A model generated the notes under the pieces. The model saw only the letters and a program-made list of their open reading frames with translations, did not search any database and was not told where the DNA came from. This document shows positions 41,344 through 62,233 of a DNA stretch of 64,000 bases, in pieces. This DNA comes from Acidimicrobiales bacterium (lineage in GTDB: Bacteria > Actinomycetota > Acidimicrobiia > Acidimicrobiales > UBA8190). A program made the position numbers and the translations under genes. The DNA lies in the NCBI GenBank assembly GCA_046704365.1, contig JBJKRZ010000034.1, forward strand, positions 2,522-66,521, in the 5' to 3' direction. Position 1 is the stretch's first letter. Each line of letters begins with the position of its first letter.

Positions 41344-42087
41344 ATGATTGATTTCTCTGTGAAGGACCGGGTAGCGCGCATCAAGATGAATCGACCCGAG
41401 AAGAAGAACGCCATCTCGCTCGAGATGCGGGACCAGATGATGGAGTCGTTGAAGGAGGTGGAGAAGAACGACGAGATATGGGCCTGTGTGATCACCGGCG
41501 TCGACGACGTGTTCTCGTCGGGATTCGACCTCTCCGACGACGTGGCTGCGTCACCTCCGGCTGTTGAAGAGCTCTATGTGCAACTCCAGTCGATCTACAA
41601 GCCGACGATTGCCGCCATTAACGGCTTGTGCCTCGCACAGGGGTGCGGGATCGCCTTGAACTGCGACATTCGCATCGCCAGCGAGGGCACGCAGTTCGGG
41701 TGGCCACAAGTGAGGCGCGGCATCTTCTCGATCAGCGGGTCGACGCTGTTGGCGGGTGCTGTTCCACTGAACCGCGCTTTCGAGATCCTCTTCACGGGAG
41801 AGTTGTTCTCCGCGACGACGGCCTACGAGCTCGGTCTGATCAACCGCGTCGTCCCGGGGACGGCGCTCGAGCAGGAAGTGACGGGCGTGCTGGACCGGAT
41901 CTTGTTGAGCGCTCCGTTGGCTGTCCGGGCGACGAAGGAAGCGATCCTGAGGACGCGACCGGGGGCGAAGCACGAGGCATATCCAGTCGTGAACGAGCTC
42001 TTTGCCGGTGTTATGAAGAGTGACGACGCAGCGGAAGGCTTGAAGGCCTTTCTGGAGAAGCGACCGCCTGTGTGGACGGCGCAGTAG
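41344..42087 (+). CDS. enoyl-CoA hydratase/isomerase (crotonase fold)
   Basis: MNRPEKKNA, AINGLCLAQGCGIALNCDIR, and a C-terminal EGLKAFLEKRPP. Confidence 0.85.
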   Translation: MIDFSVKDRVARIKMNRPEKKNAISLEMRDQMMESLKEVEKNDEIWACVITGVDDVFSSGFDLSDDVAASPPAVEELYVQLQSIYKPTIAAINGLCLAQGCGIALNCDIRIASEGTQFGWPQVRRGIFSISGSTLLAGAVPLNRAFEILFTGELFSATTAYELGLINRVVPGTALEQEVTGVLDRILLSAPLAVRATKEAILRTRPGAKHEAYPVVNELFAGVMKSDDAAEGLKAFLEKRPPVWTAQ

Positions 42088-42116
42088 CGGGTCGGCGGGA
42101 GGCGATCGTTGCGGAG

Positions 42117-43343
42117 ATGACTGACGTGCCGGACGCGCGCCGGAGCGTGTTGAGCGGAATCCGGGTCCTCGACATAGGTCATGTCCTCGCGGGTCCGCTC
42201 GTGGCGACCTTCCTCGGCGACTTCGGCGCGGATGTGATCAAGGTAGAACCCCCAGGTGGCGACCCGCTGAGGGTCCTGTCGAGCAGTGTGGATTCAGTTC
42301 CTCTGTGGTGGGCGGCTGAAGCGCGCAACAAACGGTCGATCGTCATCGACCTGCGCACCGATGCCGGCCGAGATCTGCTCCTGGACCTTGTTGGCGTCTC
42401 CGATGTGGTGATCGAGAACTTTCGGCCTGGGGTGCTCGAGCGCATGGGCATCGGCCCGGAGAGGATGTTCGCTGCCAATGGCCGCCTCATCCTGGCGAGA
42501 GTGTCGGGCTACGGCCAGACCGGCCCGTACTCGGGCCGGCCTGGATTCGGGAAAGCTGTCGAGGCGCTGGCAGGCGTGGTCGACCTGAGCGGGTTCGCCG
42601 ACGGGCCTCCTGTGCACGCAGGCTTTCCGATGGCCGATGTCTCTACAGCAGTCATGGGTGCCTTTGCGGTCATGCTGGCTCTGTACGGGAGGGACGCCAA
42701 GGGCAGCGGAAGCGACACGGGAGAGATCATCGATTTGGGAATTTATGAGACACCTTTGCGAATGATCAGCAGCTTGATTCCTGAATACGACAAGCTGAAA
42801 CTTGTGCCGCGACGCGCTGGGAATCGCCAGCCTGCCTTAAAGGCGTTCTGCAATACGTATCGTGCGCAGGACGGACGCTGGGTCAGCATCAACGGCGCAA
42901 CATTTACCGCTGCCAAGAAGATCCTGGATGCAGTAGGGGGAGATGCATCCTTCGAAATGCTCGAGCTGAAGTCGATGGACGACATCCTCGAGCATTTCGA
43001 GGAGGTGGACAAAGCCATTGCAGTATGGATCGCTGGGCACGATGCTGATCAGGTCGTGGAAGAGTTCGCCCGAGCAGGGGCGGTCGCAGCGCTCGTCTAC
43101 AACATCGAGGATGTCTTCGGGGATCCTCACATTGCCGCCCGAGAGAACATCGTGCGTGTCGAGGACGAGCTCATCGGAGAGGTGGCTGTTCCATCCGTTA
43201 TTCCACGCCTCGAGAAGAGTCCGGGCAGCATACGCCGGCGCGCGCCACGCTTGGGGGAGGACACGGATGCGGTCCTTGGCGAGTTCCTGGGATTGAGCTC
43301 GACCGACATAGCCAACCTGAGGGCGCAACGTGTCGTGGCGTGA
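42117..43343 (+). CDS. family III CoA-transferase paralogue lacking the canonical catalytic Asp
   Basis: LSGIRVLDIGHVLAGPLVATFLGDFGADVIKVEPP. The position aligned to G-Y-D of the canonical copy reads RPGFGKAVEALAG. Confidence 0.85.
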   Translation: MTDVPDARRSVLSGIRVLDIGHVLAGPLVATFLGDFGADVIKVEPPGGDPLRVLSSSVDSVPLWWAAEARNKRSIVIDLRTDAGRDLLLDLVGVSDVVIENFRPGVLERMGIGPERMFAANGRLILARVSGYGQTGPYSGRPGFGKAVEALAGVVDLSGFADGPPVHAGFPMADVSTAVMGAFAVMLALYGRDAKGSGSDTGEIIDLGIYETPLRMISSLIPEYDKLKLVPRRAGNRQPALKAFCNTYRAQDGRWVSINGATFTAAKKILDAVGGDASFEMLELKSMDDILEHFEEVDKAIAVWIAGHDADQVVEEFARAGAVAALVYNIEDVFGDPHIAARENIVRVEDELIGEVAVPSVIPRLEKSPGSIRRRAPRLGEDTDAVLGEFLGLSSTDIANLRAQRVVA

Positions 43344-46035: not shown

Positions 46036-47295
46036 GTGATGACTGGCGATAACGGTGTTGGCGACGGCCCCCTCAGCGGCATGTTGGTGATCGACCTCGC
46101 CCATGGACTAGCAGGGCCGTTCACGAGCACTCTTCTTGCCGACTTCGGCGCCGACGTGATCAAAGTCGAGCGTCCTGGGAACGGCGATTTCATGCGCCAG
46201 GTGGACCCCGCTGGCGGGGTTTGGTGGCGGTCGATGGCGAGGGGAAAGCGCTCTATTGCCGTCGATCTTGCCAATCCAGAGAGCCGTGCCCTGATGAAGG
46301 ACCTGGTGACGAAAGCGGATGCGCTGGTTGAAAGCTATCGCCCTGGCGTCCTGGAGCGTCTGGGATACGGGCCCGACGTGCTTCGTGAGTGGAATCCAGA
46401 GCTGGTGCTCTTGAGAACGTCCGGCTATGGCCAGACGGGGCCCTATCGGGAGCGCCCGGGATTCGGCAAAGCGGCGGAAGCGTTTGCCGGTCTTCTGCAC
46501 ATGACGGGATTCCCGGACGGGCCACCCGTGTACGTGGGTTTTGCGATCGCCGACATGTGCAGTGGCTTGATGGGAGCATTCGGCGTCGCCCTGGCGTGGA
46601 TGGGGCGGACGCGGGGCCTTTCGCGCGGACAGACGGTCGACGTGGCGTTGTACGAGACGATCCTGCGACTGATGGATTACGTCGTACCGGTGGCTTCGGG
46701 AAGTTCAATCGAGCTGGAGCGCAACGGGAACCGCCAGCCGATGAGCTTTGCCCCATCTGGCATCGTGCGGTCGAAGGACGACCGGTGGATCGTGTACTCC
46801 GCTGCTTCGGCGGAGGTTGCAAGGCGCGTTGTCGAGTTGGTCGCCGGGCCGGAAGTGGCGGCGGAAGCCCGGTTTTCGACGCTCGAGACGATGCGTGATC
46901 ATCTGGACGAGATCGATGCACTCGTTGGTGCGTGGTGCCATGAGCGAGGCGCGGCGGAGATCGTCGAGGAATTCACGGGGGCGAACGCTGTGGCTGCTCT
47001 GGTGTATTCCCCTGACGAGATTTTGACTGATCCGCATGTCAAGGAGCGGAACAGTGTCGTTCCCGTGGAAGGTGAGAACGCGCAATTCGTGGCCGTCACA
47101 CCGAAGCTCAGCGATACGCCGGGAAGAATCCGGTGGTCCGGGCCGAATGAGGTAGGTCAGGACAGCCTGTTCGTCTTGAGCGAGGTCATGGGATACGACA
47201 ACGACCGGATCGATCGGCTTAGGAAGTCAGGTGCGGTTGTCTTTGCTGAGGATGGCGCCGGTCCAGCGCCTGGTCCGGATGTGCAGAATGGCTGA
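46036..47295 (+). CDS. family III CoA-transferase paralogue lacking the canonical catalytic Asp
   Basis: LSGMLVIDLAHGLAGPFTSTLLADFGADVIKVERP. The aligned position reads RPGFGKAAEAFAG. Confidence 0.85.
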   Translation: MMTGDNGVGDGPLSGMLVIDLAHGLAGPFTSTLLADFGADVIKVERPGNGDFMRQVDPAGGVWWRSMARGKRSIAVDLANPESRALMKDLVTKADALVESYRPGVLERLGYGPDVLREWNPELVLLRTSGYGQTGPYRERPGFGKAAEAFAGLLHMTGFPDGPPVYVGFAIADMCSGLMGAFGVALAWMGRTRGLSRGQTVDVALYETILRLMDYVVPVASGSSIELERNGNRQPMSFAPSGIVRSKDDRWIVYSAASAEVARRVVELVAGPEVAAEARFSTLETMRDHLDEIDALVGAWCHERGAAEIVEEFTGANAVAALVYSPDEILTDPHVKERNSVVPVEGENAQFVAVTPKLSDTPGRIRWSGPNEVGQDSLFVLSEVMGYDNDRIDRLRKSGAVVFAEDGAGPAPGPDVQNG

Positions 47296-47409: not shown

Positions 47410-48597
47410 ATGGCTGCGCTAGACGGACTTCGGGTCATCGAGCTGGCGCGCGTGAGTCCGGTCGCCTATTGCACCCGACTCCTGGCGGACATGGGTGCGG
47501 AGGTCATCAAGGTCGAGGAGCCGAGGCACTACGGGAGGGGCGTTGCTCCCGGCACGAGACGTGCCGCCACGCTCGACGAGAGAATGGCCGACTCGTTGAA
47601 CCGCAACAAGCGGAGCGTGGAACTTGATTTGAAATCGCCAGAGGGTCTGGACACGTTTCTTGCACTCGCGGAACGCGCCTCTGTCGTGGTTGAAGGGTAC
47701 CGCCCGGGAGTGGTTGCCCGACTCGGATGTGATTACGAGGCCGTCAGTAGGGTGAACCCGGCAATTGTCTACTGCTCCCTCTCGGGATATGGGCAATCGG
47801 GACCGTATCGGGATTACGCCGGCCATGATGCGAATTACTTGTCGTTCGGGGGCGCCCTGGACCTGATGGGAACCGAGGAGCAAGCAACGTTCCCGCTGAA
47901 CCTCGTGGCCGATCTGGGGGGTGGAGCCATGCATGCCCTTGCGGGAATCCTGATCGCCCTCTACTCGCGTGAGAAGACCGGTAAAGGTCAGTACGTAGAT
48001 GTGTCGTACACCGACGCCACGTTCTCACTGTTGAGCGCCAGCCTCGTCATGAGGGAGCATTTTCGGTCAGGTGTGCGTCCTCGCCGCGGCGACGGGCTCT
48101 TCGGCGGACGGTTCCCCTATTACCGCGTCTATGCAACTCGGGATGAGGCATCGATCTCACTCGGCTGTTCGGAGCCCTGGCTCTGGGAGCGCTTCTGCGA
48201 AGTGGTGGAACGGCCGGACCTGATCGAGGCGGGCCCCCAGGTCGAGGACATTGCGGGGTCCCCGACGGCGATACAAGTTCGGGCAGGCGAGGAGCTGGAC
48301 GTGATGTTCCGAACACGAGGGCGCGACGACTGGTTCGAATTGCTGGCAAAGGGAGGCGTGCCAGCGGGAAAAGTCCTGTCCCTGGAGGAGACGCTCCATG
48401 ACCCACAGCTTCTGTTCCGGGAGATGGTCGTCAAACTGGGGACCACAGAAGATGGCCGCGATGCGTTGCAACCAGGTATGCCGATCAAGCTGTCGAAAGA
48501 GCCCGGCGAGATCCGGGACTTGGCGCCTGAGATAGGCGCCGACAACGAGGCCATCGACTGCGAAGTCGGTTCTAGGGAGAATCGGCGTCGAAAGTGA
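47410..48597 (+). CDS. alpha-methylacyl-CoA racemase-like family III CoA-transferase-fold enzyme
   Basis: LDGLRVIELARVSPVAYCTRLLADMGAEVIKVE. AGHDANYLSFGG matches the GHDINYxxxSG racemase motif. Confidence 0.8.
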   Translation: MAALDGLRVIELARVSPVAYCTRLLADMGAEVIKVEEPRHYGRGVAPGTRRAATLDERMADSLNRNKRSVELDLKSPEGLDTFLALAERASVVVEGYRPGVVARLGCDYEAVSRVNPAIVYCSLSGYGQSGPYRDYAGHDANYLSFGGALDLMGTEEQATFPLNLVADLGGGAMHALAGILIALYSREKTGKGQYVDVSYTDATFSLLSASLVMREHFRSGVRPRRGDGLFGGRFPYYRVYATRDEASISLGCSEPWLWERFCEVVERPDLIEAGPQVEDIAGSPTAIQVRAGEELDVMFRTRGRDDWFELLAKGGVPAGKVLSLEETLHDPQLLFREMVVKLGTTEDGRDALQPGMPIKLSKEPGEIRDLAPEIGADNEAIDCEVGSRENRRRK

Positions 48598-48735
48598 CAT
48601 CAGGCGAGCGCGACCGGGAACGGGAGTTCGAGTCATGAAGTGCGCGTTGCAGGTATCGGCGATTGTTGGACGACGTCGTGAGCGAGATGAACGGACGCAC
48701 AGGTCAGATGGATGGCCTGAGGAACTGGGTGGAGG

Positions 48736-50307
48736 GTGTGCCAGGTGACAGCTGTAATCGATACGATCGGTAGCGAATCCCGTGGAGCTGCTCAACCTGC
48801 GCGGTGGGTGAAGGTCCTCGACCAGACCCGCTGCATCGGCTGTCATGCGTGCACCACAGCGTGCAAGTCCGAGAACAGCGTTCCTCTCGGCGTGAGCCGA
48901 ACCTATGTCAAGTCGGTCGACGTGGGAAGGTTTCCACAGGTCCGTCGGGCGTTCCAGGTCACACGCTGCAACCAGTGCGAGGATGCCCCTTGCGTCACCG
49001 CTTGTCCGACGCGGGCCATGTACCGGCGGCCTGACGGGATCGTGGATTTTGACAAGAGCATCTGCATCGGCTGCAAAGCGTGCATGGCTGCATGTCCCTA
49101 CGACGCCATCTTCATCAACCCGGAGGATCACTCGGCGGAGAAGTGCAACTTCTGTGCGCACCGGCTCGATGTCGGCCTCGAGCCCGCCTGTGTGGTCGTC
49201 TGTCCCACGGAGGCGATTCTCGTCGGGAACCTGGACGACCCGCGCTCGGCGGTCGCTCGTGTCGTCCAACGCGAGCCTGTGACGGTGCGCCGTCCGGAGA
49301 AGCACACCCGGCCGGGCCTTTACTACAAAGGGGCGCACCAGGCTACGCTCGACCCGCTGGCTGCTGAGCGCCCCGAGGGCGGCACCTTTGCCTGGGCACA
49401 GATGCCCTCGGGCATCGGTGTCGTGAATTCGGGTCACCCGAAGGCGCACGGACCCCACACGTCGTCGGCTGCCGCTCTCCTCTCCTACGACGTGGCCCAC
49501 CAAGTTCCCTGGGGTTGGCGGGTGAGCCTCTACACCTGGACCAAGGGCATAGCGGCAGGTGCGTACCTCGTGCCCGTGCTGCTTGCGGTCTTCGGGTACC
49601 TGGCGTGGTCCTCGTCCCTTGTCCAATACGTCGGGCCTCTCGTCGGGCTCGGATTCTTGGCCCTCACTGGTGCCTTGCTCATCTGGGACCTGAAACACCC
49701 ACGTCGCTTCTACCTGATTTTCACGCGACATCAGTGGCGAAGCTGGCTGGTGCGCGGGGCTCTCATCCTGGGCCTCTACGGGGCCGTGCTCGTCGTCCAG
49801 GTCCTCGTCTCCCTGGCCGGATCTACCCTTTCCGAGGAGGTTCTGGCCGGTTTCGGCATACCGATCGGGCTGATGGCGTCGCTGTACACCGCCTATCTCT
49901 TCTCCCAGGCTCGCGGTCGAGACCTCTGGCAGAGTCCGGTACTCGGCCCACATCTCGCCGTCGAGGCGTTGATCGTGGGCGCCGGAGCGCTGCTGCCCGC
50001 CGCAGTAGTCATGCAAGCCTCGGTGCTGCACCCTCTGGAAGTCCTCGTGGCCGGATCGGCCGCTGCGCACCTGTTGCTGCGCGCCGCGGAGCTGACGCCG
50101 CACCACCCTTCTGCACAATCCCGCCTAGCCGCGCATGAAATGACTCACGGGCGCTTCGCCGTTTGGTTCTGGGTGGGCGCTCTGTGCATCGCCCTCGGGG
50201 TCCTGGCCCCGTTTGCCGGCTGGTGGGCGGGGATCGTCGCCCTCGTCGGCCTCTTCCCGCAGGAGCATTCCTATGTCCAGGCCGCGCAGGCGGTCCCCTT
50301 GGCATGA
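48736..50307 (+). CDS. fusion of four-cluster [4Fe-4S] ferredoxin subunit (DmsB/PsrB/NrfC-like) with NrfD/PsrC-like membrane anchor
   Basis: Four Cys clusters: CIGCHACTTAC, CNQCEDAPCVTACP, CIGCKACMAACP and CNFC..CVVVCP. About eight hydrophobic helices follow, with IWDLKHPRRF. No twin-arginine motif. Confidence 0.85.
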   Translation: MCQVTAVIDTIGSESRGAAQPARWVKVLDQTRCIGCHACTTACKSENSVPLGVSRTYVKSVDVGRFPQVRRAFQVTRCNQCEDAPCVTACPTRAMYRRPDGIVDFDKSICIGCKACMAACPYDAIFINPEDHSAEKCNFCAHRLDVGLEPACVVVCPTEAILVGNLDDPRSAVARVVQREPVTVRRPEKHTRPGLYYKGAHQATLDPLAAERPEGGTFAWAQMPSGIGVVNSGHPKAHGPHTSSAAALLSYDVAHQVPWGWRVSLYTWTKGIAAGAYLVPVLLAVFGYLAWSSSLVQYVGPLVGLGFLALTGALLIWDLKHPRRFYLIFTRHQWRSWLVRGALILGLYGAVLVVQVLVSLAGSTLSEEVLAGFGIPIGLMASLYTAYLFSQARGRDLWQSPVLGPHLAVEALIVGAGALLPAAVVMQASVLHPLEVLVAGSAAAHLLLRAAELTPHHPSAQSRLAAHEMTHGRFAVWFWVGALCIALGVLAPFAGWWAGIVALVGLFPQEHSYVQAAQAVPLA

Positions 50308-50337
50308 CACCGTCACGGAGTCCAGGTCGAAAGCAGC

Positions 50338-53289
50338 TTGACGAGAGGGAGAAGTACCTTGAACAACAGTGAGCGCTCTAGCAGGCTGCAGGCGGCGGCG
50401 AGTCGAGTCAGCGCCGCGCGCACAGAAACCGAAGCGAGAGGCGAGACTTTCTATCCGGGCCCCTCGCGCGTGCATTTGGCATCGTTCCCGCCCAAGGAGC
50501 GCTGGGACGACTGGGTCGAACTCGATAGCCGAGCGTGGCCAGAGCGCAAAGAGCGCCACAGCATGCTCGTGCCCACGACCTGCTTCAACTGCGAGTCGGC
50601 CTGCGGCCTGCTCGCCTATGTCGACAGAGAGACCCTCCAGATAACGAAGCTGGAGGGCAATCCGGAGCACCCCGGCTCGCGCGGGCGCAATTGCGCCAAG
50701 GGCCCAGCGACCCTGAACCAGCTGACCGATCCCGATCGCATCCTCTATCCGCTGCGCCGGGTGGGTGAGCGCGGCGCGGGACGCTGGGAGCAGGTGAGCT
50801 GGGATGAGGCGCTCGATGACATCGCCAAACGGCTGCGCTCGGCCATCACCGAGGGGCGTCAGAACGAGATAATGGTGCACATCGGCCGTCCAGGCGAAGA
50901 CGGCTTCACAGAGCGGGTACTGGCGAGTTGGGGGGTGGACGGCCACAATTCGCACACGAACATCTGCTCGGCGGGCGGGCGCACGGGCTACCAGTTTTGG
51001 ATGGGCGTCGACAGGCCCAGCCCCGACCACGCCAACGCCGAGGTGATCTACCTCATCAGCTCGCATCTCGAGGCCGGTCACTATTTCAACCCCCATGCCC
51101 AGCGAATCACGGAGGCCCGTCAAAATGGCGCCAAGGTGATTGTGTTGGACACCCGCCTCTCGAACACGGCCACCCACGCCGACTATTGGTTGGCGACATT
51201 CCCGGGATCAGAAGCGGCCGTGAACCTGGCGATCGCCAACCACATCATAAAGACCAAGCGTTACGACCGCGAGTTCGTTCGAAGGTGGTGGAACTGGGAG
51301 CAGTACATGGAGACCTGCCACCCGAAGGCGCCGCAGACATTCGAAGAATTCGAGAAGGTACTCGAAGGGGTGTGGGGACAGTTCACCTTCGAGTTCGCCG
51401 CAGCAGAATCTCGGGTGCCCGCCGAGACCATCGCCGAGGTGGCCGAAGTCGTCGCAGGGGCCGGGCATCGCCTTTCCGCGCACACATGGCGATCGGCCGC
51501 GGCGGGCAATTTGGGTGGTTGGCAGGTGAGCCGCACCTTGTTCCTCCTGAGTGCCCTGCTCGGAGCCGTCGCCACAGAGGGAGGGACATTCCCCAATGCG
51601 TGGAACAAGTTCGTCCCGAAGCCCATACACGTTCCCCCGCACCCAGGGGTGTGGAACGACCTCTCCTGGCCCGAGGAATACCCCCTCGCTCAGAACGAGC
51701 TCTCCTTTCTCCTGCCTCACTTCCTGAAGGAAGGCCGCGGGAACCTGTCGGTGTACTTCACCCGTGTCTACAATCCGGTGTGGACGAACCCCGACGGCAT
51801 GACTTGGGTGGAGGTCCTGAGCGACGAGTCCAAGGTGGGATGCCACGTTGCGCTCACCCCTACCTGGTCGGAGACCGCCTACTTCGCCGACTACGTGCTC
51901 CCTGTCGGGCTCTCCCCTGAGCGTCACGACACCACGTCGTACGAGCAGTACGACGCGCAGTGGATAGCCCTCCGCCAGCCGGTCCTGAGAGCGGCGAGGG
52001 AGCGGCTCGGTGAAGAGGTTTCCGACACCCGGCAGGTGAACCCGGGGGAAGTGTGGGAGGAGAACGAGCTCTGGATCGAGCTGTCTTGGCGAATCGACCC
52101 CGACGGCAGCCTCGGCATCCGCCAGTACCACGAGTCCCGTGCCGATCCAGGTACCAAGCTGAGCGTGGACGAGTACTACTCCTGGATGTTCGAGCACTCG
52201 GTTCCCGGCCTGCCCGAACGTGCCGGAGAGGAGAACCTGACCCCGATCGAGTACATGCGCCGCTATGGGGCTTTCGAGATCACCCGGAAGGTCGGACCCC
52301 GCCATGAGCAGGAAGTCCACCCCGAGGAGCTCGAGGACATGGCCGTCGGACCTCACGGTCGCGTCTATGCAAGAGGGGCTCCGCCCGCCACGACCAACAT
52401 TGCACCAATGGGCAGCCCAGACCCCGATGCTGAGGGGCGTCGCGCCGTGGGTGTGTTGATCGACGGTGTCGTGCGTCGGGGGTTCCCCACCCCCTCCGGC
52501 AAGCTCGAATTGTGGTCCTCTACCTTGGCCGGCTGGGGCTGGGACGAGCATGCGCTACCTGGGTACATCGAGAGCCACATCCACCCCTCCGAACTCGAAG
52601 GGGGCCAGATGGTGCTCATATCCACTTTCCGGCTGCCCACTCAGATTCACACGCGCTCGGTCAACGCCAAGTGGCTCGACGAGCTCGCCCACACCAACCC
52701 GCTGTGGGTGCACCCCTCCGACGCCGATCGCCTCAACATAAAGCGCAGTGGCGACCTGGTTCGCGTCGAGACCGAGATCGGGTACTTTGTGCTGAAGGCC
52801 TGGGTGACGGAGGGAATCCTCCCCGGTGTCGTGGCGTGCAGCCACCACATGGGCCGCTGGCGCACCGAAGGTCAGCCCAGCCAGCGACAGATGATGGCGA
52901 CTGTGGCCCTGGAGCGAGACCAGGAGGCTTGGAGGATGCGCCGTACAGCGGGAGTCTCACCGTACGAGTCGGAAGACCCTGACACCTCCCGAATCTGGTG
53001 GAGCGATGTGGGCGTGCACCAGAATCTCACCTTTCCAGTGCATCCTGACCCCATTTCGGGGATGCACTGCTGGCACCAGGCCGTGCACGTCCGCCCCGCT
53101 GGTGAGGCGGACCGCGACGGGGACATCGTGGTGGACGGCGCCAAGGCGCACGACGTCTACAAGCGTTGGCTCGCCACGTCCAGACCGGCGGGCTCGGTCA
53201 GTCCAGACGGGACGCGCCGGCCCTATTGGCTCATGCGGCCCCTCCGCCCTGCTCGTTCCGCATACTCGCTGGCGGGCGACAAGGGGTGA
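50338..53289 (+). CDS. molybdopterin (Mo/W-bisPGD) oxidoreductase catalytic subunit, Psr/Phs/Ttr/Soe-like, no Tat signal
   Basis: CFNCESACGLLAYVD...EGNPEHPGSRGRNCAKG FeS motif, and HTNICSAGG (candidate Cys ligand). About 980 aa. The start may be TTG 50338 or TTG 50359, the latter with GGGAG 7 nt upstream. Confidence 0.9.
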   Translation: MTRGRSTLNNSERSSRLQAAASRVSAARTETEARGETFYPGPSRVHLASFPPKERWDDWVELDSRAWPERKERHSMLVPTTCFNCESACGLLAYVDRETLQITKLEGNPEHPGSRGRNCAKGPATLNQLTDPDRILYPLRRVGERGAGRWEQVSWDEALDDIAKRLRSAITEGRQNEIMVHIGRPGEDGFTERVLASWGVDGHNSHTNICSAGGRTGYQFWMGVDRPSPDHANAEVIYLISSHLEAGHYFNPHAQRITEARQNGAKVIVLDTRLSNTATHADYWLATFPGSEAAVNLAIANHIIKTKRYDREFVRRWWNWEQYMETCHPKAPQTFEEFEKVLEGVWGQFTFEFAAAESRVPAETIAEVAEVVAGAGHRLSAHTWRSAAAGNLGGWQVSRTLFLLSALLGAVATEGGTFPNAWNKFVPKPIHVPPHPGVWNDLSWPEEYPLAQNELSFLLPHFLKEGRGNLSVYFTRVYNPVWTNPDGMTWVEVLSDESKVGCHVALTPTWSETAYFADYVLPVGLSPERHDTTSYEQYDAQWIALRQPVLRAARERLGEEVSDTRQVNPGEVWEENELWIELSWRIDPDGSLGIRQYHESRADPGTKLSVDEYYSWMFEHSVPGLPERAGEENLTPIEYMRRYGAFEITRKVGPRHEQEVHPEELEDMAVGPHGRVYARGAPPATTNIAPMGSPDPDAEGRRAVGVLIDGVVRRGFPTPSGKLELWSSTLAGWGWDEHALPGYIESHIHPSELEGGQMVLISTFRLPTQIHTRSVNAKWLDELAHTNPLWVHPSDADRLNIKRSGDLVRVETEIGYFVLKAWVTEGILPGVVACSHHMGRWRTEGQPSQRQMMATVALERDQEAWRMRRTAGVSPYESEDPDTSRIWWSDVGVHQNLTFPVHPDPISGMHCWHQAVHVRPAGEADRDGDIVVDGAKAHDVYKRWLATSRPAGSVSPDGTRRPYWLMRPLRPARSAYSLAGDKG

Positions 53290-54173: not shown

Positions 54174-55058
54174 TCAGACGTGGTCGATCAGCCCGGGCAA
54201 GCTGAGAGCCAGTTCGTCGACGGTCCAGCGTCGGTCACCCTGCAGGAGATCGACCGGCCTCCAGGGCTGGAACAACCCAACTCTGCCACCCTGTGCAAAC
54301 AGGATCTTGCCGCTCATGGGGCAACTCTCAGTTGCCAGGTACGCCACGAGCGGGGAGATGTTCGCCGGGTGCCACTCGTCGAATGTGCGCCCATCTACAG
54401 GAGCCTTGCGCAGCTCGCGGACCTCGGGGGTGTCATCAGTCATCCGAGTTCGGGCGGCTGGTGCAACGGCGTTCACTTTGACACCATAGGGCGAAAGCTC
54501 CGCCGCAGCGATGAGCGTAAAGGTGGCAATGCCGGCCTTGGCCGCTCCATAGTTGCCTTGTCCCACGCGCCCGAGTAGCCCGGAGAGGGAGGTTGTGTTC
54601 ACAACAGACGCCCGAACCTGGTGGCCGTCCTCGAAGCGTGCACGCCAATACCTCGCACAATGATACGTCGGCGCAAAGTGGCCTTTCAGGTGGACGCGAA
54701 TTACGGAGTCCCACTCTTCCTCACTCATCGATACGAGCATCCGGTCACGGAGGATGCCGGCATTGTTCACGAGAACGTGGAGATCTCCAAATTCCTGCAC
54801 TGCTGAGTCGAGCAGTCGCCCTGCCCCGGCAAAGTCGGTTACATCCTCAGTGTTGGCGAGTGCCTCTCCCCCCTGATCCCGGATCTCGTCTACGACGCGC
54901 TGTGCGGCCCCGCGGTCGTCGCCGAAACCATCGACGGTGCCTCCCGGGTCGTTGACGACCACTCGTGCACCTTGAGCAGCGAAGAATCGAGCATGCTCTC
55001 TGCCAATGCCGCGCCCGGCGCCAGTGATGATTGCGACCCTTCCGTCGAGCGAGCCCAT
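54174..55058 (-). CDS. SDR-family oxidoreductase (MFE-2/Hsd4A-type 3-hydroxyacyl-CoA dehydrogenase-like)
   Basis: The internal ATG 55058 gives MGSLDGRVAIITGAGRGIGREHA. VVVNDPGGTVDGFG...AAQRVVDEI is typical of the MFE-2 N-domain type. Also YGAAKAG. Confidence 0.8.
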   Translation of the reverse strand: MGSLDGRVAIITGAGRGIGREHARFFAAQGARVVVNDPGGTVDGFGDDRGAAQRVVDEIRDQGGEALANTEDVTDFAGAGRLLDSAVQEFGDLHVLVNNAGILRDRMLVSMSEEEWDSVIRVHLKGHFAPTYHCARYWRARFEDGHQVRASVVNTTSLSGLLGRVGQGNYGAAKAGIATFTLIAAAELSPYGVKVNAVAPAARTRMTDDTPEVRELRKAPVDGRTFDEWHPANISPLVAYLATESCPMSGKILFAQGGRVGLFQPWRPVDLLQGDRRWTVDELALSLPGLIDHV

Positions 55059-55147
55059 TGGACCCGAAGGTAATGGACGTCGGTCAGAGAGGCAAAGTCG
55101 TCGACTCGGCTCAACGTTCTGGATCGAAATTGGTATAAAGTAACTGC

Positions 55148-55828
55148 GTGGCTCAGCCTCCGGCACTCATGCCGATAGGAGAACGGCGGAGTGTTCGCGA
55201 AGAGATTGCATCTGCGGTTCGTGCAGCGTTGATTGCCGGCGAAATGCGTCCTGGTGAGATTTACTCTGCACCATTGCTTGCCACGCGGTTTGGCGTGTCG
55301 TCGACCCCGGTTCGAGAAGCGATGCTGGATCTGGTCAAGGAGGGGCTCGTATCCGTAGTGAGGAACAAGGGCTTTCGGGTTCGCCAACTCTCGGATCGCG
55401 AGCTTGACGAAATTTCCGAACTTCGCCGGCTTGTAGAGATCCCGACGGTGCTGCGAGCAGTTGGACTTGCCACGGACACTGACGTGTTGGAGCTCCGGCG
55501 CCTGGCCCAGAACATCGTGACAAGGGCCAATGACGGGGACTTGATCGGATACGTCGACGACGACAGTCGGTTTCATCTCACCCTCCTCGGCATCGTGGGG
55601 AACGAGCAGCTTGTTTCGCTCGTTAGCGGGCTTCGCGCTCGCTCGAGGCTGTTCGGTTTGCGGCAGCTGGCGAGCGGTGGTGAGCTGGTTCACTCGGCCC
55701 GGGAACATGTCGAGATGGTGGACCTCATCGAGGCCGGCGATGGGCCGGCGTTGGAGCTCCTTGTCGAACGTCATATCGACCATGTCCGAGGAGCATGGGC
55801 AGGCCGCCTCGAGGCAGGGCCTCGCTAG
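55148..55828 (+). CDS. GntR-family transcriptional regulator (FadR/FCD subfamily)
   Basis: LATRFGVSSTPVREAMLDLVKEGLV HTH plus an FCD-like helical domain. It diverges from the SDR gene. Confidence 0.85.
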   Translation: MAQPPALMPIGERRSVREEIASAVRAALIAGEMRPGEIYSAPLLATRFGVSSTPVREAMLDLVKEGLVSVVRNKGFRVRQLSDRELDEISELRRLVEIPTVLRAVGLATDTDVLELRRLAQNIVTRANDGDLIGYVDDDSRFHLTLLGIVGNEQLVSLVSGLRARSRLFGLRQLASGGELVHSAREHVEMVDLIEAGDGPALELLVERHIDHVRGAWAGRLEAGPR

Positions 55829-55852
55829 ATCCGAGCCACAAAGAGTCAGCGC

Positions 55853-57232
55853 TCATTTGGACGGCAGCATCGTCACCGTATGAAGCGATGTGTAGAACTC
55901 GAGCGCTGCCTTTCCCTGCTCACGCTGCCCGTAGCTCGATTTCCCCTCGCCGCCGAACGGCAAGAAGAAATCTACGCCAGTTGTCGGCGCGTTCAGCTTG
56001 ATCTGCCCGGCATTGAGGAGCTCACTGACGAGTAGGGCAGAGTCGAGGTCGTTGCTGTGGACCGATGCAGCGAGGCCGTAGCCAGTCTCGTTGGCGACTT
56101 CGAGCGCCTGGTCGACGGTGTCGACGGATACGATAGCGCATATAGGCCCGAAGACCTCCTCCTGCAGGAGCTCGTGACTGGGGGGCAAGCCGTCAACTGC
56201 CGTGGGCCTCACATACCACCCGTCGATAGGTATTTCGGCGTCGCCACCCGTCAGTATGCGTCCTCCGCTGTTCTTGGCCCCGGCGATGGCATCTCTCACG
56301 CGATCCCGGGCGCGTTCGTCGATCACTGGTCCAACGGTGGTGCCTGGCTCCGAAGGGTCGGCAACCTTGAGGCCCTCGGTCTCGGCGATGAAGGCGTGGA
56401 CGAACTCCGAAGCCTGTCCGACAACCACGATCCGCTTGGTGGCTGTACACTTCTGGCCAGCGAAGCCGTATGCAGCCAGCGCAATCTGTTTCGCTGCCGC
56501 GCCAACGTTGGCGTCCGGAAGGACGATTGCGGGGTTTTGCCCACCCATTTCACACTGTACCGGGATGCCACGGCCGGCAGCAGCAGCAGCAATCTGAGAG
56601 CCAACAGCGGCTGATCCAGTGAAGGACAACACATCTGCCACCTCGATCAACGCGCTCCCGACTGCTGCACCCCCGGCGAGTACCTGAAGCAGTCCTGGGG
56701 GAAAGTGGACAGCAAGCAGTTCCTGCAGCCGTAGCGCGCATGCCGACGATTGAGGGGCAGGTTTGAGAAGGACGGCGTTGCCGAATGCCAATGCGGGTGC
56801 CGCTTTCCAAAGGGGGATCGCCAAGGGGAAGTTCCAGGGTGTGATCAGACCTGCGACACCACGCGGCCGGCGACGAGTAAAGGCCAGGCCGCTCGCGGCA
56901 CTCGGCATGTGAACAGCGCCGATGGGATCGTAAACTTGCTGAGCGAAGTAGCGCAGAATACTGACGGCCCGGGAAACCTCACCTTCAGCCTCGCTGCGAG
57001 GTTTGCCGACCTCACGAATGACCAAGGCGACTAGATCTTCGGAGGCCGAAGCCACCGTGTCAGCGGCTCCTCCCAGAGCGGCGGAGCGCTCACTCGGGAG
57101 GGCGGCAGCCCAGGCGCGCTGAGCAGCCCGAGCCGCACGAGCGGCCTTGTGAACGTCTGACAGGGTCGATTCCGCAACGGAGCAGACGATGTCGAGGGGC
57201 TGCTGAGGAGAGATCGACTCGACAAGGTTCAC
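55853..57232 (-). CDS. aldehyde dehydrogenase (alpha-ketoglutarate semialdehyde dehydrogenase-like, LhpG-type by context)
   Basis: ITPWNFPL, FTGSAAVG, EMGGQN, and the catalytic Cys in AGQKCTATKR. It is co-oriented with the epimerase and deaminase genes. Confidence 0.8.
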   Translation of the reverse strand: MNLVESISPQQPLDIVCSVAESTLSDVHKAARAARAAQRAWAAALPSERSAALGGAADTVASASEDLVALVIREVGKPRSEAEGEVSRAVSILRYFAQQVYDPIGAVHMPSAASGLAFTRRRPRGVAGLITPWNFPLAIPLWKAAPALAFGNAVLLKPAPQSSACALRLQELLAVHFPPGLLQVLAGGAAVGSALIEVADVLSFTGSAAVGSQIAAAAAGRGIPVQCEMGGQNPAIVLPDANVGAAAKQIALAAYGFAGQKCTATKRIVVVGQASEFVHAFIAETEGLKVADPSEPGTTVGPVIDERARDRVRDAIAGAKNSGGRILTGGDAEIPIDGWYVRPTAVDGLPPSHELLQEEVFGPICAIVSVDTVDQALEVANETGYGLAASVHSNDLDSALLVSELLNAGQIKLNAPTTGVDFFLPFGGEGKSSYGQREQGKAALEFYTSLHTVTMLPSK

Positions 57233-57277
57233 GTACTTTCGTTCCTTTCTGGTCGCGAAGCGGTCGTCGGCATGGCC

Positions 57278-58288
57278 TTAGAGCAAGAAACCGGTGGGAA
57301 AGGGATCAGTCGGGTCGAGCACGTACTGGCCCATGCCCGTAATCCACGCTCGTCCCGTGATAGTCGGGATCACTGCCGGCAAATCGCCAACTGTTGTGGT
57401 ACCGACGATGCGCCCTACAAATTGGCTTCCGATGAGGGACTCGTTGACGAACTCCGCCTCGAGTGGCAGTGTCCCCCGTGCGTAGAGTTGCGCCATCCGC
57501 GCTGACGTGCCGGTGCCACAGGGCGACCTGTCGAACCAGCCTGGGTGGATGACCATGGCGTGCCGAGAACGAGTCGAGTTCGATCCGGGGGCAGCCATGT
57601 AGACATGACGACAGCCCGATATCTCACTGTGCTCGGGGTGTGTTGGGGCGACTTGATCCGTCACGGCGCTCATTATCGACAAGCCGGCCTGGAGCATCTG
57701 CTGCCTGGCAGTCACGTCGCTGGGCGCGAACGGCAGGCTGAGTTGTTCGGTATCGACAATGGCGCAAAAGTTGCCGCCGAACGCCACGTCGACGTTGATG
57801 GCCCCGATTCCAACCGCGTCGATCGCCAGGTCCAGCCCATAGGCGAAAGAAGGGACGTTGCGAAGCGTTACGCCGACGGCACTGCCGTCAACAACATGAA
57901 CCTCGGCGAGGACGAGCCCAGCCGGGGTATCAAGCGAGATCTGGGTGACGGGCTCGTTCACCGTTACCATTCCCGTCTCAACGAGAACGGTTGCCACACC
58001 AATGGTTCCGTGCCCGCACATCGGCAGGCAGCCGCTGACTTCGATGAATAGGACGCCCCAGTCGGCGTCAGGCCTGGTAGGCGGCTGCAAAATCGCCCCG
58101 CTCATTGCTCCGTGGCCTCGGGGTTCGTACATCAGTAGTGTGCGAATGTCGTCGAGGTGATCCTGGAAATACTCACGCCGTTGTGCCATCGTCTGGCCCG
58201 GAATCACTCCTATCCCGCCAGTGATGACGCGTGTGGGCATACCCTCCGTGTGTGAATCAACAGCGAAGACAACTCGGTCCGTGCGCAT
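57278..58288 (-). CDS. proline racemase-family enzyme, Cys/Cys type: probable 4-hydroxyproline 2-epimerase
   Basis: FAVDSHTEGMPTRVITGG. Both catalytic Cys motifs are present: LPMCGHGTIG and DRSPCGTGTSA. Confidence 0.8.
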   Translation of the reverse strand: MRTDRVVFAVDSHTEGMPTRVITGGIGVIPGQTMAQRREYFQDHLDDIRTLLMYEPRGHGAMSGAILQPPTRPDADWGVLFIEVSGCLPMCGHGTIGVATVLVETGMVTVNEPVTQISLDTPAGLVLAEVHVVDGSAVGVTLRNVPSFAYGLDLAIDAVGIGAINVDVAFGGNFCAIVDTEQLSLPFAPSDVTARQQMLQAGLSIMSAVTDQVAPTHPEHSEISGCRHVYMAAPGSNSTRSRHAMVIHPGWFDRSPCGTGTSARMAQLYARGTLPLEAEFVNESLIGSQFVGRIVGTTTVGDLPAVIPTITGRAWITGMGQYVLDPTDPFPTGFLL

Positions 58289-58303
58289 GCAGAGATCTCG
58301 GCC

Positions 58304-59197
58304 TCAGCAGCAGCCGGCAGCGACGACCGTCTTCGTTGCTGCTCGTACTGCCTCCGCGAATTCGCTGGCAAGAGGGAGCCGAGGAGGACGACATGGGCCG
58401 CCATGACGACCCACGATGTCCATCGAGAGCTTTATCGCTTGCACGAACTCGGTTCGTGAGTCCCAACGCAACAGGGGGTGAAGCGTCCGGTAAAGGGGAA
58501 GCGCAGTTCCCAGATCCCCGGCTGAAGCAGAAGCATAGAGTTCCTTGCAGGTGCGGGGAAAGGCGTTGGGGTAGCCCGCCACCCAACCGGTTGCTCCGGC
58601 GAGAATGAGCTCCAGCAAGACATCGTCTGCGCCGGCCAGGATGTTGAGGCCGGGTGCCATCTCGGTGATCTGGTAGGCGCGCCTGACGTCGCCAGAGAAC
58701 TCTTTGACCGCGACGATGAGCCCCTCTCCGTACAGGCGAGCCAGCAGCTCTGGAGTGAGGTCTACCTTGGTGTCGATAGGGTTGTTGTACGCTATGACCG
58801 GGAGTCCGACCGAGGACACGGCACGGTAGTGTTCAAGCACGGTGAGTGCGTCGGCTCGATAGGCGTTGGGTGGCAGGAGCATGACGGCTGCGCATCCGGC
58901 GGTGGCAGCGTCTTCGGCCCAACGGGTTGCTTCATCTGATCCATAAGCACCGACACCGGGCATCACGGTGAAGCCATTCGGTGCCGCTTCGATGGCGGTG
59001 CGAACGACACGGGAGCGCTCCTCGCTGGTGAGTGTCTGGTACTCGCCCAATGAGCCATTGGGCGTGACGCCGTCCACACCCTCTGCCGCCAGCCATGCCA
59101 CGTGGTCGGCGTAGAGGTCGAAGTCGATGGTGTGGTCGACGCGCATCGGCAGGGCGGTCGCCACGAGCACGCCATTCCACGGTTCACGTTCAGGCAT
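58304..59197 (-). CDS. DapA/NAL-family Schiff-base enzyme (probable 1-pyrroline-4-hydroxy-2-carboxylate deaminase, LhpC-type by context)
   Basis: GVDGVTPNGSLGEYQTLT and AVKEFSGD (Lys region) match the dihydrodipicolinate synthase fold. Confidence 0.75.
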   Translation of the reverse strand: MPEREPWNGVLVATALPMRVDHTIDFDLYADHVAWLAAEGVDGVTPNGSLGEYQTLTSEERSRVVRTAIEAAPNGFTVMPGVGAYGSDEATRWAEDAATAGCAAVMLLPPNAYRADALTVLEHYRAVSSVGLPVIAYNNPIDTKVDLTPELLARLYGEGLIVAVKEFSGDVRRAYQITEMAPGLNILAGADDVLLELILAGATGWVAGYPNAFPRTCKELYASASAGDLGTALPLYRTLHPLLRWDSRTEFVQAIKLSMDIVGRHGGPCRPPRLPLASEFAEAVRAATKTVVAAGCC

Positions 59198-59245
59198 CGT
59201 GGAATCTGCTCCTTATTAATTGTGTGTGAGGCGAATGATACGATC

Positions 59246-59266
59246 AGTACAATGTCATATGGTACT
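59246..59266. promoter_or_regulatory. imperfect palindrome AGTAC-N11-GTACT in the divergent hydroxyproline promoter region
   Basis: agtacaatgtcatatggtact lies between minus-strand start 59197 and plus-strand GTG 59381. It has GT..AC-type half sites, as used by GntR regulators. Confidence 0.25.
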
Positions 59267-59380
59267 ACCCTCGTCAACCGACCGGGGAGGAGCCGGAAGG
59301 CTTTCGAGCGACGCTGGAGGCGGCTACGCGCCGGCACTGCTGGGTGAGAGCCTGTTGCACGAGTACGTGGGAGAGAGTCG

Positions 59381-60544
59381 GTGAGTGTCGACGTCGTCGT
59401 GATCGGCGCAGGCATCGTGGGTGCCGCCTGCGCCTATTTTGCGGCCGCTGAGGGACTGTCGGTCTGTGTCGTTGACAGTGGGGCGATTGCTGGTGGCACG
59501 ACGAGCGCCGGCGAAGGCAATTTGCTCGTGTCCGACAAGCAGCCCGGCCCCGAGCTCGAGCTCGCCACCATGTCGAACGAACTTTGGCAAGGACTGGCTG
59601 ACATGCCCTTCGAGGAGACTTCAGTGGCTGCTCTGATAGAGATGGAGGCAAAGGGTAGCCTGGTCGTAGCTTCAACCGACGACGCCATGCGCGCTCTGGA
59701 GGAGTTGAGTCAGGAGCAACGCGTGGCGAATGTCGAGTCTATTTCGGTGGATGCCCGCCAACTGAGATCCTACGAACCGAACATTGCGTCGGACCTCGCC
59801 GGTGGCTTCTTCTACCCACAAGACATGCAAATCCAGCCGATGCGCGCCACCGCAATGCTACTGCGAATGGCTCGTCGTCACGGCGCCCAGGTGCACAGCG
59901 GAGAGCGCGTAACAGGCTTGCTGCAACGTGGTGGCCGTATCGTCGGAGTTCAGACAGCGGCGCATAGGCGCTTTTCAGGTGCCGTTGTCAATGCCGCAGG
60001 GGCCTGGGCGGGTGAGGTCGCACAGCTTGCCAGCGTGAACTTGCCGATCTCCCCTCGACGTGGCTTCGTCCTCGTCACTGAACCTCTGCCCCAGGTCGTG
60101 CATCATAAAGTGTACTTTTCCGACTACGTATCTGACGTTGCCAGCGACAGTCCCGTCCTGCAGGCGTCTGCCGTGGTGGAGGGTACGGCCTCCGGGCCGA
60201 TTCTCATCGGCGCTACCCGCGAACGCGTGAGCTTCGATCGGACGTTGTCTCCGTACGCACTACGGAGCCTCGCCGCCGGCGCGACCCGCCTCTTCCCTTT
60301 TTTGGCAGACGTGGCAGCTATCCGTGCCTACCGCGGGTTCCGCCCGTATTGTCCGGATCATCTTCCGGTCATCGGGCCCGATAGCCGAGCCCCGGGGTTG
60401 TGGCACGCGTGCGGCCATGAGGGTGCGGGGATCGGTCTGTCGGCTGCAACCGGTCGGCTGATTGCAGAGAGCCTTCAGGGGTTGCCGGCATCGCTGCCGC
60501 TGAGGCCGTTTCGTCCGGAGCGGTTCGAGGGGCCCCATGAGTGA
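59381..60544 (+). CDS. FAD-dependent oxidoreductase (DAO family; D-hydroxyproline dehydrogenase beta-subunit/LhpB-like)
   Basis: GTG start gives VSVDVVVIGAGIVGAACAYFAA, followed by a DAO-type layout. Confidence 0.8.
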   Translation: MSVDVVVIGAGIVGAACAYFAAAEGLSVCVVDSGAIAGGTTSAGEGNLLVSDKQPGPELELATMSNELWQGLADMPFEETSVAALIEMEAKGSLVVASTDDAMRALEELSQEQRVANVESISVDARQLRSYEPNIASDLAGGFFYPQDMQIQPMRATAMLLRMARRHGAQVHSGERVTGLLQRGGRIVGVQTAAHRRFSGAVVNAAGAWAGEVAQLASVNLPISPRRGFVLVTEPLPQVVHHKVYFSDYVSDVASDSPVLQASAVVEGTASGPILIGATRERVSFDRTLSPYALRSLAAGATRLFPFLADVAAIRAYRGFRPYCPDHLPVIGPDSRAPGLWHACGHEGAGIGLSAATGRLIAESLQGLPASLPLRPFRPERFEGPHE

Positions 60545-60788
60545 CTTCACCATCACCTTCGACGGGCGTACGGTCGATTGTCGCGAGGGCTGGACAGTAG
60601 GCGCGGCCCTGATGGCGTCAGGAATCCGCTCTTGGCGGACGACCCGGCATTTGGGCCGCCCCAGGGGATTGTTCTGTGGGATCGGCCTGTGTTTCGATTG
60701 CCTGGTAACAGTGAACGGTCGAGCATCACAGCGCGCCTGCCTGCTGCTTGCCCGACCGGGAGATGTCGTCAACACGCAGCGTGGATGA
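60537..60788 (+). CDS. small (2Fe-2S)-binding subunit (LhpE/HcnA/OoxA-N-like)
   Basis: 83 aa with the GLFCGIGLCFDCLVTVNG Cys pattern. There is an 8-nt overlap with the upstream gene. Confidence 0.7.
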   Translation: MSDFTITFDGRTVDCREGWTVGAALMASGIRSWRTTRHLGRPRGLFCGIGLCFDCLVTVNGRASQRACLLLARPGDVVNTQRG

Positions 60789-60791
60789 TCT

Positions 60792-62207: not shown

Positions 62208-62233
62208 CATAGTCGAGAGGTCGTGGCTCGAAG

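Follow-up and report, generated by a model that had tools for sequence, protein, structure and literature searches.

A widespread Tat-less molybdoenzyme with a fused iron-sulfur and NrfD-type anchor subunit, encoded in an Acidimicrobiales bacterium: a putative cytoplasm-facing sulfite:quinone oxidoreductase

The DNA analyzed here, referred to as the window, is a 64,000-nucleotide stretch of an Acidimicrobiales bacterium (GenBank assembly GCA_046704365.1, contig JBJKRZ010000034.1). On its plus strand lie two adjacent genes that appear to specify a membrane-bound molybdoenzyme. The first (48736–50307) encodes a 523 amino acid (aa), 56 kDa protein in which an iron-sulfur (FeS) subunit (B) is fused to an NrfD/PsrC-type anchor subunit (C). 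The second (50338–53289, maximal open reading frame [ORF] of 983 aa) encodes a catalytic subunit (A) of the molybdenum-bis(pyranopterin guanine dinucleotide) (Mo-bisPGD) type, as judged from its translation and Pfam matches.

The fusion protein contains Fer4_11 (aa 73–165, 1.4e-23) and NrfD (aa 255–487, 3.7e-17) Pfam domains within a single polypeptide. Its ferredoxin domain, predicted to be cytoplasmic, spans aa 24–200 (48805–49335) and was delimited by its motifs, its match to PsrB and the charge bias described below. Sixteen cysteines fall into four groups (aa 33–43, 78–90, 110–120 and 137–156), from which four [4Fe-4S] clusters are expected. A sequence search of solved structures aligned aa 23–200 with PsrB of Thermus (2vpw_B; 168.7 bits), and the best NCBIfam models for this domain were NrfC, TtrB and DsrO, every score being far under the cutoff. 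The membrane domain (aa 261–522; 49516–50301) matches Pfam NrfD and folds into eight transmembrane (TM) helices at pLDDT >90 in an AlphaFold2 model built on an alignment of 50 homologues. Foldseek paired the membrane half with PsrC (2vpw_C; target-normalized TM-score [TMt] 0.73, rmsd 3.8 Å) and the FeS half with PsrB (2vpw_B). Between TM2 and TM3 lies a positively charged WDLKHPRRF loop (aa 317–325; 49684–49710), located on the FeS side, of which D318, L319, H321, P322, R324 and F325 are almost invariant among homologues. The quinone site of this domain is presumed to face the cytoplasm. In the databases the fusion protein is represented by entry P0283 (520 aa), which starts three codons further in.

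Translation of A probably begins at TTG 50359, which is preceded by a GGGAGAAG ribosome-binding site and gives a product of 976 aa and 109.9 kDa; entry P0001 (976 aa) is 100% identical to A and agrees in length with this start. The protein carries Molybdop_Fe4S4 (aa 77–126, 2.1e-11), Molybdopterin (2.9e-20) and Molydop_binding (1.1e-15) Pfam domains. The [4Fe-4S] site FS0, C82-x2-C85-x3-C89...C119 (50581–50694), comprises the CFNCESAC motif at aa 82–89 plus C119 and was recognized from the sequence and Pfam. Cys210 (codon 50965–50967), within HTNICSAGG, is the predicted Mo ligand; a phmmer alignment places it opposite Cys173 of Thermus thermophilus PsrA (2vpw), which we take to be the Mo ligand of that enzyme. 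The position is thus occupied by Cys and not by Asp, Ser or selenocysteine. The place usually held by a twin-arginine translocation (Tat) signal is filled by a hydrophilic N-terminal extension of about 55 aa, in which a PPKERWDDW motif (50488–50514) is conserved in 120 homologues. Within the region ahead of FS0 (50359–50580, aa 8–81) the conserved pattern includes ARGETFYPGxSRVHLAxFPPKERWDDWVELDSRxWP. A 'PPxExW' core is common to Tat-bearing relatives (P0126, P0144 and P0185), where it stands behind the signal peptide, and the extension may help A to dock onto the FeS or the anchor module. The hydrolase gene downstream of A most likely starts at ATG 53331 rather than at 53166.

An earlier note, made from the letters alone, had read these ORFs as a Mo-bisPGD subunit with an N-terminal [4Fe-4S] motif and a candidate ligand Cys in HTNICSAGG, preceded by a four-cluster ferredoxin joined to about eight NrfD/PsrC-like helices. 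Pfam, the Cys motif, the alignment with PsrA, AlphaFold2 and Foldseek all agree with that description. The same note saw no Tat signal in either protein and suggested a cytoplasmic enzyme; the analysis supports both points, the second as a prediction. Each ORF opens at the first start codon behind an in-frame stop, so there is no longer N-terminus and no hidden signal peptide at any alternative start. Likewise, 120 homologues of A were all found to be without an S/T-R-R-x-F-L motif and without a hydrophobic h-region.

The orientation of the anchor was predicted from the charges in the loops of 78 fusion proteins. Loops L2-3, L4-5 and L6-7, on the FeS side, contain on average 4.5, 2.0 and 2.1 Lys plus Arg residues (K+R), and the opposite-side loops scored (L1-2, L3-4 and L5-6) 0.06, 0.77 and 0.38; summed, these means come to 8.6 and 1.2, respectively. 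Since positive charges mark the inner side of membrane proteins, this bias places the FeS domain, and hence A, in the cytoplasm, and both modules are predicted to face that compartment. In Thermus PsrC both termini lie at the P-side together with PsrB (PMC8076601). With the termini of PsrC on the PsrB side, B can be fused to the N-terminus of C without an extra helix, and a Psr-like assembly is simply flipped.

The three domains of A, its Cys ligand, the four-cluster FeS partner and the haem-free NrfD-type anchor with eight TM helices make the pair a member of the complex iron-sulfur molybdoenzyme (CISM)/dimethyl sulfoxide reductase (DMSOR; MopB) superfamily, within its Cys-ligand, Psr/Phs-like sector. 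No NCBIfam cutoff was reached by A or by the FeS domain, so no curated family could be assigned. For A the best model was PhsA (NF012032; 196.1 bits against a cutoff of 694), with TtrA at 104.6 against 1750 and ArrA at 98 against 1600. These scores and the lack of a Tat signal exclude A from the Psr/Phs and Ttr families. Module by module, the closest solved structure is the polysulfide reductase PsrABC of T. thermophilus (2vpw; A 114 bits, B 168.7 bits, C TMt 0.73), with which the pair shares the cofactor set, the eight-helix anchor and the aligned ligand Cys. Unlike it, Psr is Tat-exported, faces the periplasm and consists of three subunits, PsrA having about 765 aa; A of the window is about 200 aa longer, carries the conserved hydrophilic extension and belongs to a flipped complex. 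The gene order of tetrathionate reductase (TtrBCA) and selenate reductase (SrdBCA) is B-C-A. TtrB is the second-best NCBIfam model for the FeS domain (175.4 bits against 416); Ttr and Srd differ from the pair in being Tat-exported reductases with separate subunits.

The earlier note had supposed that a BC-fused, Tat-less enzyme of this kind, co-oriented with CoA-transferases and a hydrolase, was undescribed. The fusion and A together are very common in databases, but under generic names only, and the literature searched contained no paper on the family. Relatives of A number at least 8000, the best 120 all being 73–83% identical. The family was scanned using one genome per GTDB species; at least 590 species-level relatives in at least six phyla were confirmed, and with haloarchaea included the identities range from 50 to 83%. 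Among the matches listed are Actinomycetota, Acidobacteriota (Pyrinomonadaceae), Chloroflexota, Gemmatimonadota, Dormibacterota and one Mycobacterium, the closest being a metagenome-assembled genome of the Actinomycetes (81% identity). Annotated replicons with A include those of Thermomicrobium roseum (62%), Rhodococcus jostii RHA1 (plasmid pRHL3, 58%) and several haloarchaea (51–53%). The published transcriptome study of T. roseum does not mention the fusion-A locus. Hosts are chiefly aerobic soil heterotrophs. The fusion partner is as common: its best 120 matches all have both domains, are 497–549 aa long and bear generic names only. Of 81 related loci, 77 have the fusion gene just ahead of A; A is near the upstream end of the locus in the other four. 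Being so common, the BC-fused, Tat-less arrangement is the rule of a large and tightly conserved family and not an oddity of the window. Between Actinomycetota, Acidobacteriota, Chloroflexota, Gemmatimonadota and Dormibacterota, A is 69–81% identical, unusually tight for an enzyme of 980 aa; the family must have spread recently or be under very strong constraint, and both may apply.

The Tat-less fused clade comprises the window, Friedmanniella, T. roseum, RHA1, Natrinema and the proteins P0121 and P0122, with identities down to 39–47%. Its nearest outside relatives, 30–41% identical over the full length, have twin-arginine signals: P0126 (HRRTFLK), P0144 (SRRKVL) and P0185 (TRRQFLK). Like the fused family, the P0126 clade and the P0144/P0185 types have the 'PPxExW' motif, the order B, then C, then A, and a TorD-like gene downstream; they differ in their RR signals, in their separate B and C, and often in the addition of a cytochrome c and another FeS protein. 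Because the Tat-bearing relatives examined keep B and C as separate genes (order B-C-A at the P0144 and P0126 loci), Tat loss and B-C fusion coincide. From these comparisons the fused clade seems to descend, by inversion in the membrane, from a periplasmic enzyme of sulfur-metabolizing bacteria. Since the closest outside relatives are Tat-exported, the inward orientation may have arisen independently of SoeABC, the sulfite dehydrogenase considered below.

Several of the unfused relatives were of interest in themselves. The P0126 clade (1080–1140 aa, Tat-exported, apparently uncharacterized) belongs to Campylobacterota, Aquificota and Myxococcota; its genera are Sulfurimonas, Thiovulum and Persephonella, which are sulfur chemolithotrophs, together with Nitrosophilus and Hydrogenothermus. 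Around the P0126 gene (L095, 3687–7034) the order is cytochrome c, B, C, A, TorD and a 359-aa FeS protein. Plasmid pAZKH of Azoarcus sp. KH32C (L084, 5245–13136) has a B-C-A-TorD cluster that also includes three genes for hypothetical proteins and one for a 368-aa FeS protein and that adjoins a PhnD-like/histidine kinase/sigma-54 regulator set and arsB. Its A is 32% identical to A of the window and 51% to the Psr-like representative P0172, and the cluster may specify a metalloid or sulfur oxidoreductase. In a Sulfurovum mangrovi plasmid (NZ_CP087125.1; L092, 6001–9163) an A homologue of 37.5% identity, flanked by nrfD on one side and a TorD gene on the other, was matched as two pieces and has no coding sequence in the PLSDB table; it may contain a selenocysteine codon or be a pseudogene.

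The neighbours of the pair were surveyed in the 81 related GTDB loci by tblastn and clustering of all ORFs, a procedure adopted after simple GC-frame gene calling had chosen an antisense ORF (48157–50118) over the fusion gene and was dropped. A TorD/NarJ-like protein is encoded downstream in 66 loci, the other 15 having no adjacent gene of this type. A protein of about 460 aa with metallo-beta-lactamase (MBL) and rhodanese domains, of the persulfide dioxygenase (PDO)-rhodanese type, occurs in 25 of the 81 (median gap to the core 466 bp), a DsrE-family protein in 15 (268 bp), TusA in 12 (643 bp) and an ArsR-family regulator in 15 (189 bp). At least one of the three sulfur proteins (MBL-rhodanese, DsrE or TusA) is present in 31 of the 81 loci, full flanks being available in just 48; for these proteins and the ArsR-type regulators taken together the figure is 31–34. 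On pRHL3 of R. jostii RHA1 the genes form an operon, DsrE-TusA-fusion-A-Mrp, with gaps of 0–30 bp, and are divergent from a group made up of two MBL genes, a pair of DUF202 genes, ArsR and thioredoxin (TrxA). In the Myxococcota member P0122 (47% identity) a sigma-54 activator, an MBL-rhodanese and two YeeE-like Sulf_transp genes precede the fusion and A. A CsoR/CstR-type regulator lies 12 bp upstream of the pair in T. roseum. This is the sole direct upstream case, and such regulators were rejected as general partners, the matches being mostly 6–9 kb away and probably copper CsoR. Gene company of this kind is known from persulfide and sulfide detoxification in the cst, BigR/blh and FisR-sqr-pdo systems. 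The conserved MBL-rhodanese, DsrE, TusA and ArsR-type neighbours in other genomes therefore argue for a role in sulfur or sulfite metabolism.

By analogy, the pair probably specifies a cytoplasm-facing sulfite:quinone oxidoreductase working like SoeABC, a reading to which we give a probability of about 0.58. The product would be a CISM of two polypeptides and three modules, on the plan of Thermus PsrABC but with the opposite orientation in the membrane. Cytoplasmic sulfite, arising from PDO or from other desulfonating or desulfinating reactions, would be oxidized to sulfate at the Mo centre, and two electrons would pass from FS0 through the four [4Fe-4S] clusters to (mena)quinone on the cytoplasmic side of the anchor, the quinol being reoxidized by the aerobic chain. 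The sulfite/sulfate couple (about -516 mV) can reduce menaquinone (about -74 mV), and the oxidation of thiosulfate to tetrathionate cannot; given the potential of menaquinone, sulfite alone among the candidate sulfur donors has ample driving force. In most relatives the enzyme would be part of a persulfide-responsive unit in which a PDO-rhodanese yields sulfite or thiosulfate, DsrE and TusA serve as sulfane sulfur carriers, and ArsR/BigR-type or sigma-54 regulators control expression. The enzyme would clear toxic sulfite from the cytoplasm and its electrons would enter respiration. In the window the pair stands by itself, without the usual TorD-like chaperone and sulfur partners, at the edge of a large acyl-CoA island.

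SoeABC is the known Tat-less, cytoplasm-facing and NrfD-anchored sulfite dehydrogenase (PMC8076601; PMC9774590), and its anchor must be inverted relative to Psr (PMC8076601). As in the SoeABC enzymes of Allochromatium vinosum, Aquifex aeolicus and Ruegeria pomeroyi, A of the window is a Tat-less Mo-bisPGD protein that has its [4Fe-4S] site near the N-terminus and Cys as Mo ligand. In both systems A and B modules predicted to be cytoplasmic sit on an NrfD-type anchor. The association of SoeABC with pathways yielding cytoplasmic sulfite has its counterpart in 31–34 of the 81 loci of the fused family and in the RHA1 and Myxococcota loci, but not in the window. The two are alike in size, A of the window having about 109–110 kDa; SoeA is reportedly of 108.95 kDa, a value credited to Dahl et al. 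2013. The fused family differs in its partners (TorD-like, Mrp, DsrE, TusA and PDO-rhodanese) and in its hosts, which are mainly Actinomycetota, Acidobacteriota, Chloroflexota and haloarchaea. A large, little-appreciated 'bSreA/SoeA' radiation of low diversity was noted by Wells et al. (PMC10100899). No family member has been given the Soe name by annotation pipelines, no such name occurs among the clusters of 20 representatives, and SoeA is absent from the NCBIfam and PDB matches. Plasmid matches tried as SoeA candidates were rejected, as they proved to be an arx cluster, Mo/FAD-ferredoxin systems, a split oxidoreductase and fused reductases. A paper on SAR202 reports Apr/Sat and not SoeABC.

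A number of observations weigh against a Soe-like function. The soeA, soeB and soeC genes are separate, and here B and C are fused and the order is BC-A. The likeness lies in architecture, orientation, size and context, and membership in SoeABC is putative. The IMG names for the fused family are COG only, whereas the representative P0172 received a KEGG-derived name, a weak sign that the family falls outside soeA as KEGG defines it. In about 60% of the loci the fusion, A and TorD stand alone without a sulfur neighbour, and where DsrE and TusA share the operon they could mean that the substrate is carrier-bound sulfane sulfur and not free sulfite. Near the pair in the window, the only gene of a sulfur type is that of a generic TauE-family permease, and there is no TorD-like gene. 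No report of activity for any member of the fused family was found in the literature.

The same architecture and orientation could serve another sulfur substrate, through oxidation of persulfide or polysulfide (carried by TusA/DsrE or of low molecular weight), interconversion of thiosulfate and tetrathionate, or quinol-driven reduction of persulfide or polysulfide, a chemistry of the Psr/Phs/Ttr type performed in the cytoplasm. We regard this as possible although doubtful. PsrA/PhsA, PsrB and PsrC are the best solved and curated matches; the B-C-A order is that of ttrBCA and srdBCA and recurs in unfused relatives (Azoarcus L084, L088 and L095); in RHA1 and about a dozen more loci, DsrE and TusA belong to one transcription unit with the pair; and PDO-rhodanese fusions such as Staphylococcus aureus CstB yield thiosulfate. 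Yet the NCBIfam scores fall far under their cutoffs (PhsA 196 against 694, TtrA 105 against 1750), and by established potentials menaquinone is unfavourable both for the reduction of thiosulfate or polysulfide and for the oxidation of thiosulfate to tetrathionate. Tetrathionate, moreover, is not expected as a cytoplasmic metabolite, and the hosts are mostly aerobic soil heterotrophs. It is unlikely that the enzyme is a quinone-reducing sulfane dehydrogenase which, in the manner of SoxCD, takes persulfide sulfur from DsrE/TusA and, by transfer of oxygen atoms at Mo, oxidizes it as far as sulfonate or sulfite. Were that so, it would be a third route of cytoplasmic sulfane-sulfur oxidation beside rDsr and sHdr, with an oxygen-independent catalytic step. 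Such a route would be widely distributed among Actinomycetota, Acidobacteriota and Chloroflexota of aerobic soils and among haloarchaea, and the enzyme would represent an independent membrane inversion of a periplasmic sulfur enzyme by Tat loss and B-C fusion.

An action on metalloids (arsenite, antimonite or a selenium oxyanion) is most improbable. ArsR/SmtB regulators adjoin the pair in 15 loci, but they accompany MBL-rhodanese, DsrE and TusA, a persulfide context of the BigR/SqrR type, and not ars genes. Distant relatives do lie beside aioXSR-like or ars genes, as does the Azoarcus KH32C relative (32% identity) by arsB and the PhnD/histidine kinase/sigma-54 set, and ArrA and ArrB are among the solved-structure matches; against this stand identities of just 24–27% to bona fide ArxA and the ArrA NCBIfam score of 98 against 1600. 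A role in a pathway encoded beside the pair, either dehydrogenation or hydroxylation of an organic intermediate of a CoA-transferase/enoyl-CoA hydratase/luciferase-like monooxygenase (LLM) route or oxidation of sulfite from an ABC-imported organosulfonate, is very unlikely. The pair does follow the third CoA-transferase on the same strand after a gap of 138 bp with no predicted terminator ahead of it, a TauE-family permease is encoded about 2.8 kb upstream, SsuA_fam is the sole NCBIfam match of the substrate-binding protein, and Xsc is the best model for the thiamine pyrophosphate (TPP) enzyme at 9772–11472. No window neighbour, however, recurs beside the pair in the 81 loci (three family-III CoA-transferases, an enoyl-CoA hydratase, two LLMs, short-chain dehydrogenases/reductases (SDRs), TauE, the NMT1-type ABC importer and the hydrolase); the 0–6 matches for each, at 28–39% identity, are paralogue-level noise, and the pair has no demonstrable tie to the local acyl-CoA or sulfonate genes. 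The remainder of the window is generic beta-oxidation, and the Cys ligand of A sets it apart from the organic-substrate DMSOR enzymes (Ebd, C25dh and Pcm), which form the type II, Asp-ligand clade. Of the earlier proposal of a sulfite module serving an organosulfonate/acyl-CoA pathway, the sulfur or sulfite role thus gains support from conserved neighbours elsewhere, and the local link does not. The sulfonate flavour that the note had seen in the window proved weak on closer analysis: the LLMs are of the F420 type (TIGR03619) and not SsuD, SsuA_fam scores 76.7 against a cutoff of 163.5, and the permease has a generic Pfam match to TauE and no NCBIfam match. Finally, the window copy may be an inactive or orphan remnant, acquired horizontally without its chaperone and partners, which we hold to be distinctly improbable. 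The 64-kb window has no homologue of TorD-like, Mrp, MoeA, PDO-rhodanese, DsrE or TusA proteins, the two genes have a higher G+C content at third codon positions (GC3; 0.78 and 0.81) than the adjoining CoA-transferases (0.71–0.72), and the identity of 70–80% across phyla points to transfer. Both ORFs are nevertheless intact and of full length with all Cys ligands present, a TorD-like gene is missing beside the pair in 15 of the 81 other loci too, the chaperone gene could sit elsewhere in the genome, and no repeats, mobile-element boundaries or other such traces were seen flanking the pair. The pair probably landed beside unrelated catabolic genes by chance of placement.

In heterotrophic bacteria, sulfide:quinone oxidoreductase (SQR) and PDO oxidize sulfide and persulfide and leave reactive sulfite in the cytoplasm. 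To our knowledge, the enzyme that removes it has generally not been assigned in Gram-positive and other non-proteobacterial aerobes. In an account of actinobacterial organosulfur catabolism, too, the fate of sulfite was left unassigned (PMC5157978). If the sulfite:quinone oxidoreductase proposed here is real, it would close a gap in sulfur-cycle gene inventories, in which surveys based on KEGG and COG would miss the family, and it would give soil bacteria one more point at which electrons enter respiration. It would also be a clean case of a respiratory molybdoenzyme inverted by Tat loss and FeS-anchor fusion. The flipped, BC-fused CISM family, widespread and apparently uncharacterized, amounts to a large blind spot in sulfur-cycle annotation and not to a new principle. 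R. jostii RHA1 is a tractable strain that carries it (RHA1_RS43840 and RHA1_RS43835), and Friedmanniella endophytica, Aciditerrimonas ferrireducens and T. roseum are further culturable carriers.

Most of the window is an acyl-CoA catabolic island. Its genes encode four CoA-transferases, a thiolase, several enoyl-CoA hydratases, one acyl-CoA dehydrogenase and one 3-hydroxyacyl-CoA dehydrogenase, besides aldehyde dehydrogenases, F420-type LLMs and two TPP enzymes. The CoA-transferases are family-III (CaiB/BaiF-type) paralogues lying within 21 kb (27553–28758, 42072–43343, 46036–47295 and 47410–48597), all far under the NCBIfam equivalog cutoffs. The TPP enzyme at 9772–11472, 37 kb upstream of the pair, has Xsc as its best NCBIfam model (371 against 620 and 360 against 676). 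It adjoins an aldehyde dehydrogenase, for which SafD is the second-best model (331 against 700), and a major facilitator superfamily transporter, and from these matches the segment 9772–14522 gives a weak hint of organosulfonate metabolism. Identities as Xsc, SsuD or SsuA were rejected for genes of the window, the scores being far under the cutoffs.

Downstream of the pair lies a hydroxyproline/opine-type catabolic cluster (54174–62207). Its minus-strand genes encode an SDR (54174–55166), an aldehyde dehydrogenase (55853–57232), a proline-racemase-family protein (57278–58288) and a dihydrodipicolinate synthase (DHDPS)-family protein (58304–59197), and those of the plus strand an FAD-dependent DAO-type oxidase (59381–60544) and a protein with Pyr_redox_2 and BFD [2Fe-2S] domains (60792–62207). 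The two ends of the window (1–2000 and 62000–64000) have a G+C content of 0.70–0.72, compared with about 0.61 elsewhere. They include a CHAP-domain ORF (237–1985; GC3 0.86) and two minus-strand ORFs without a Pfam match (62234–63064 and 63096–63995) with GC3 values of 0.87–0.96.

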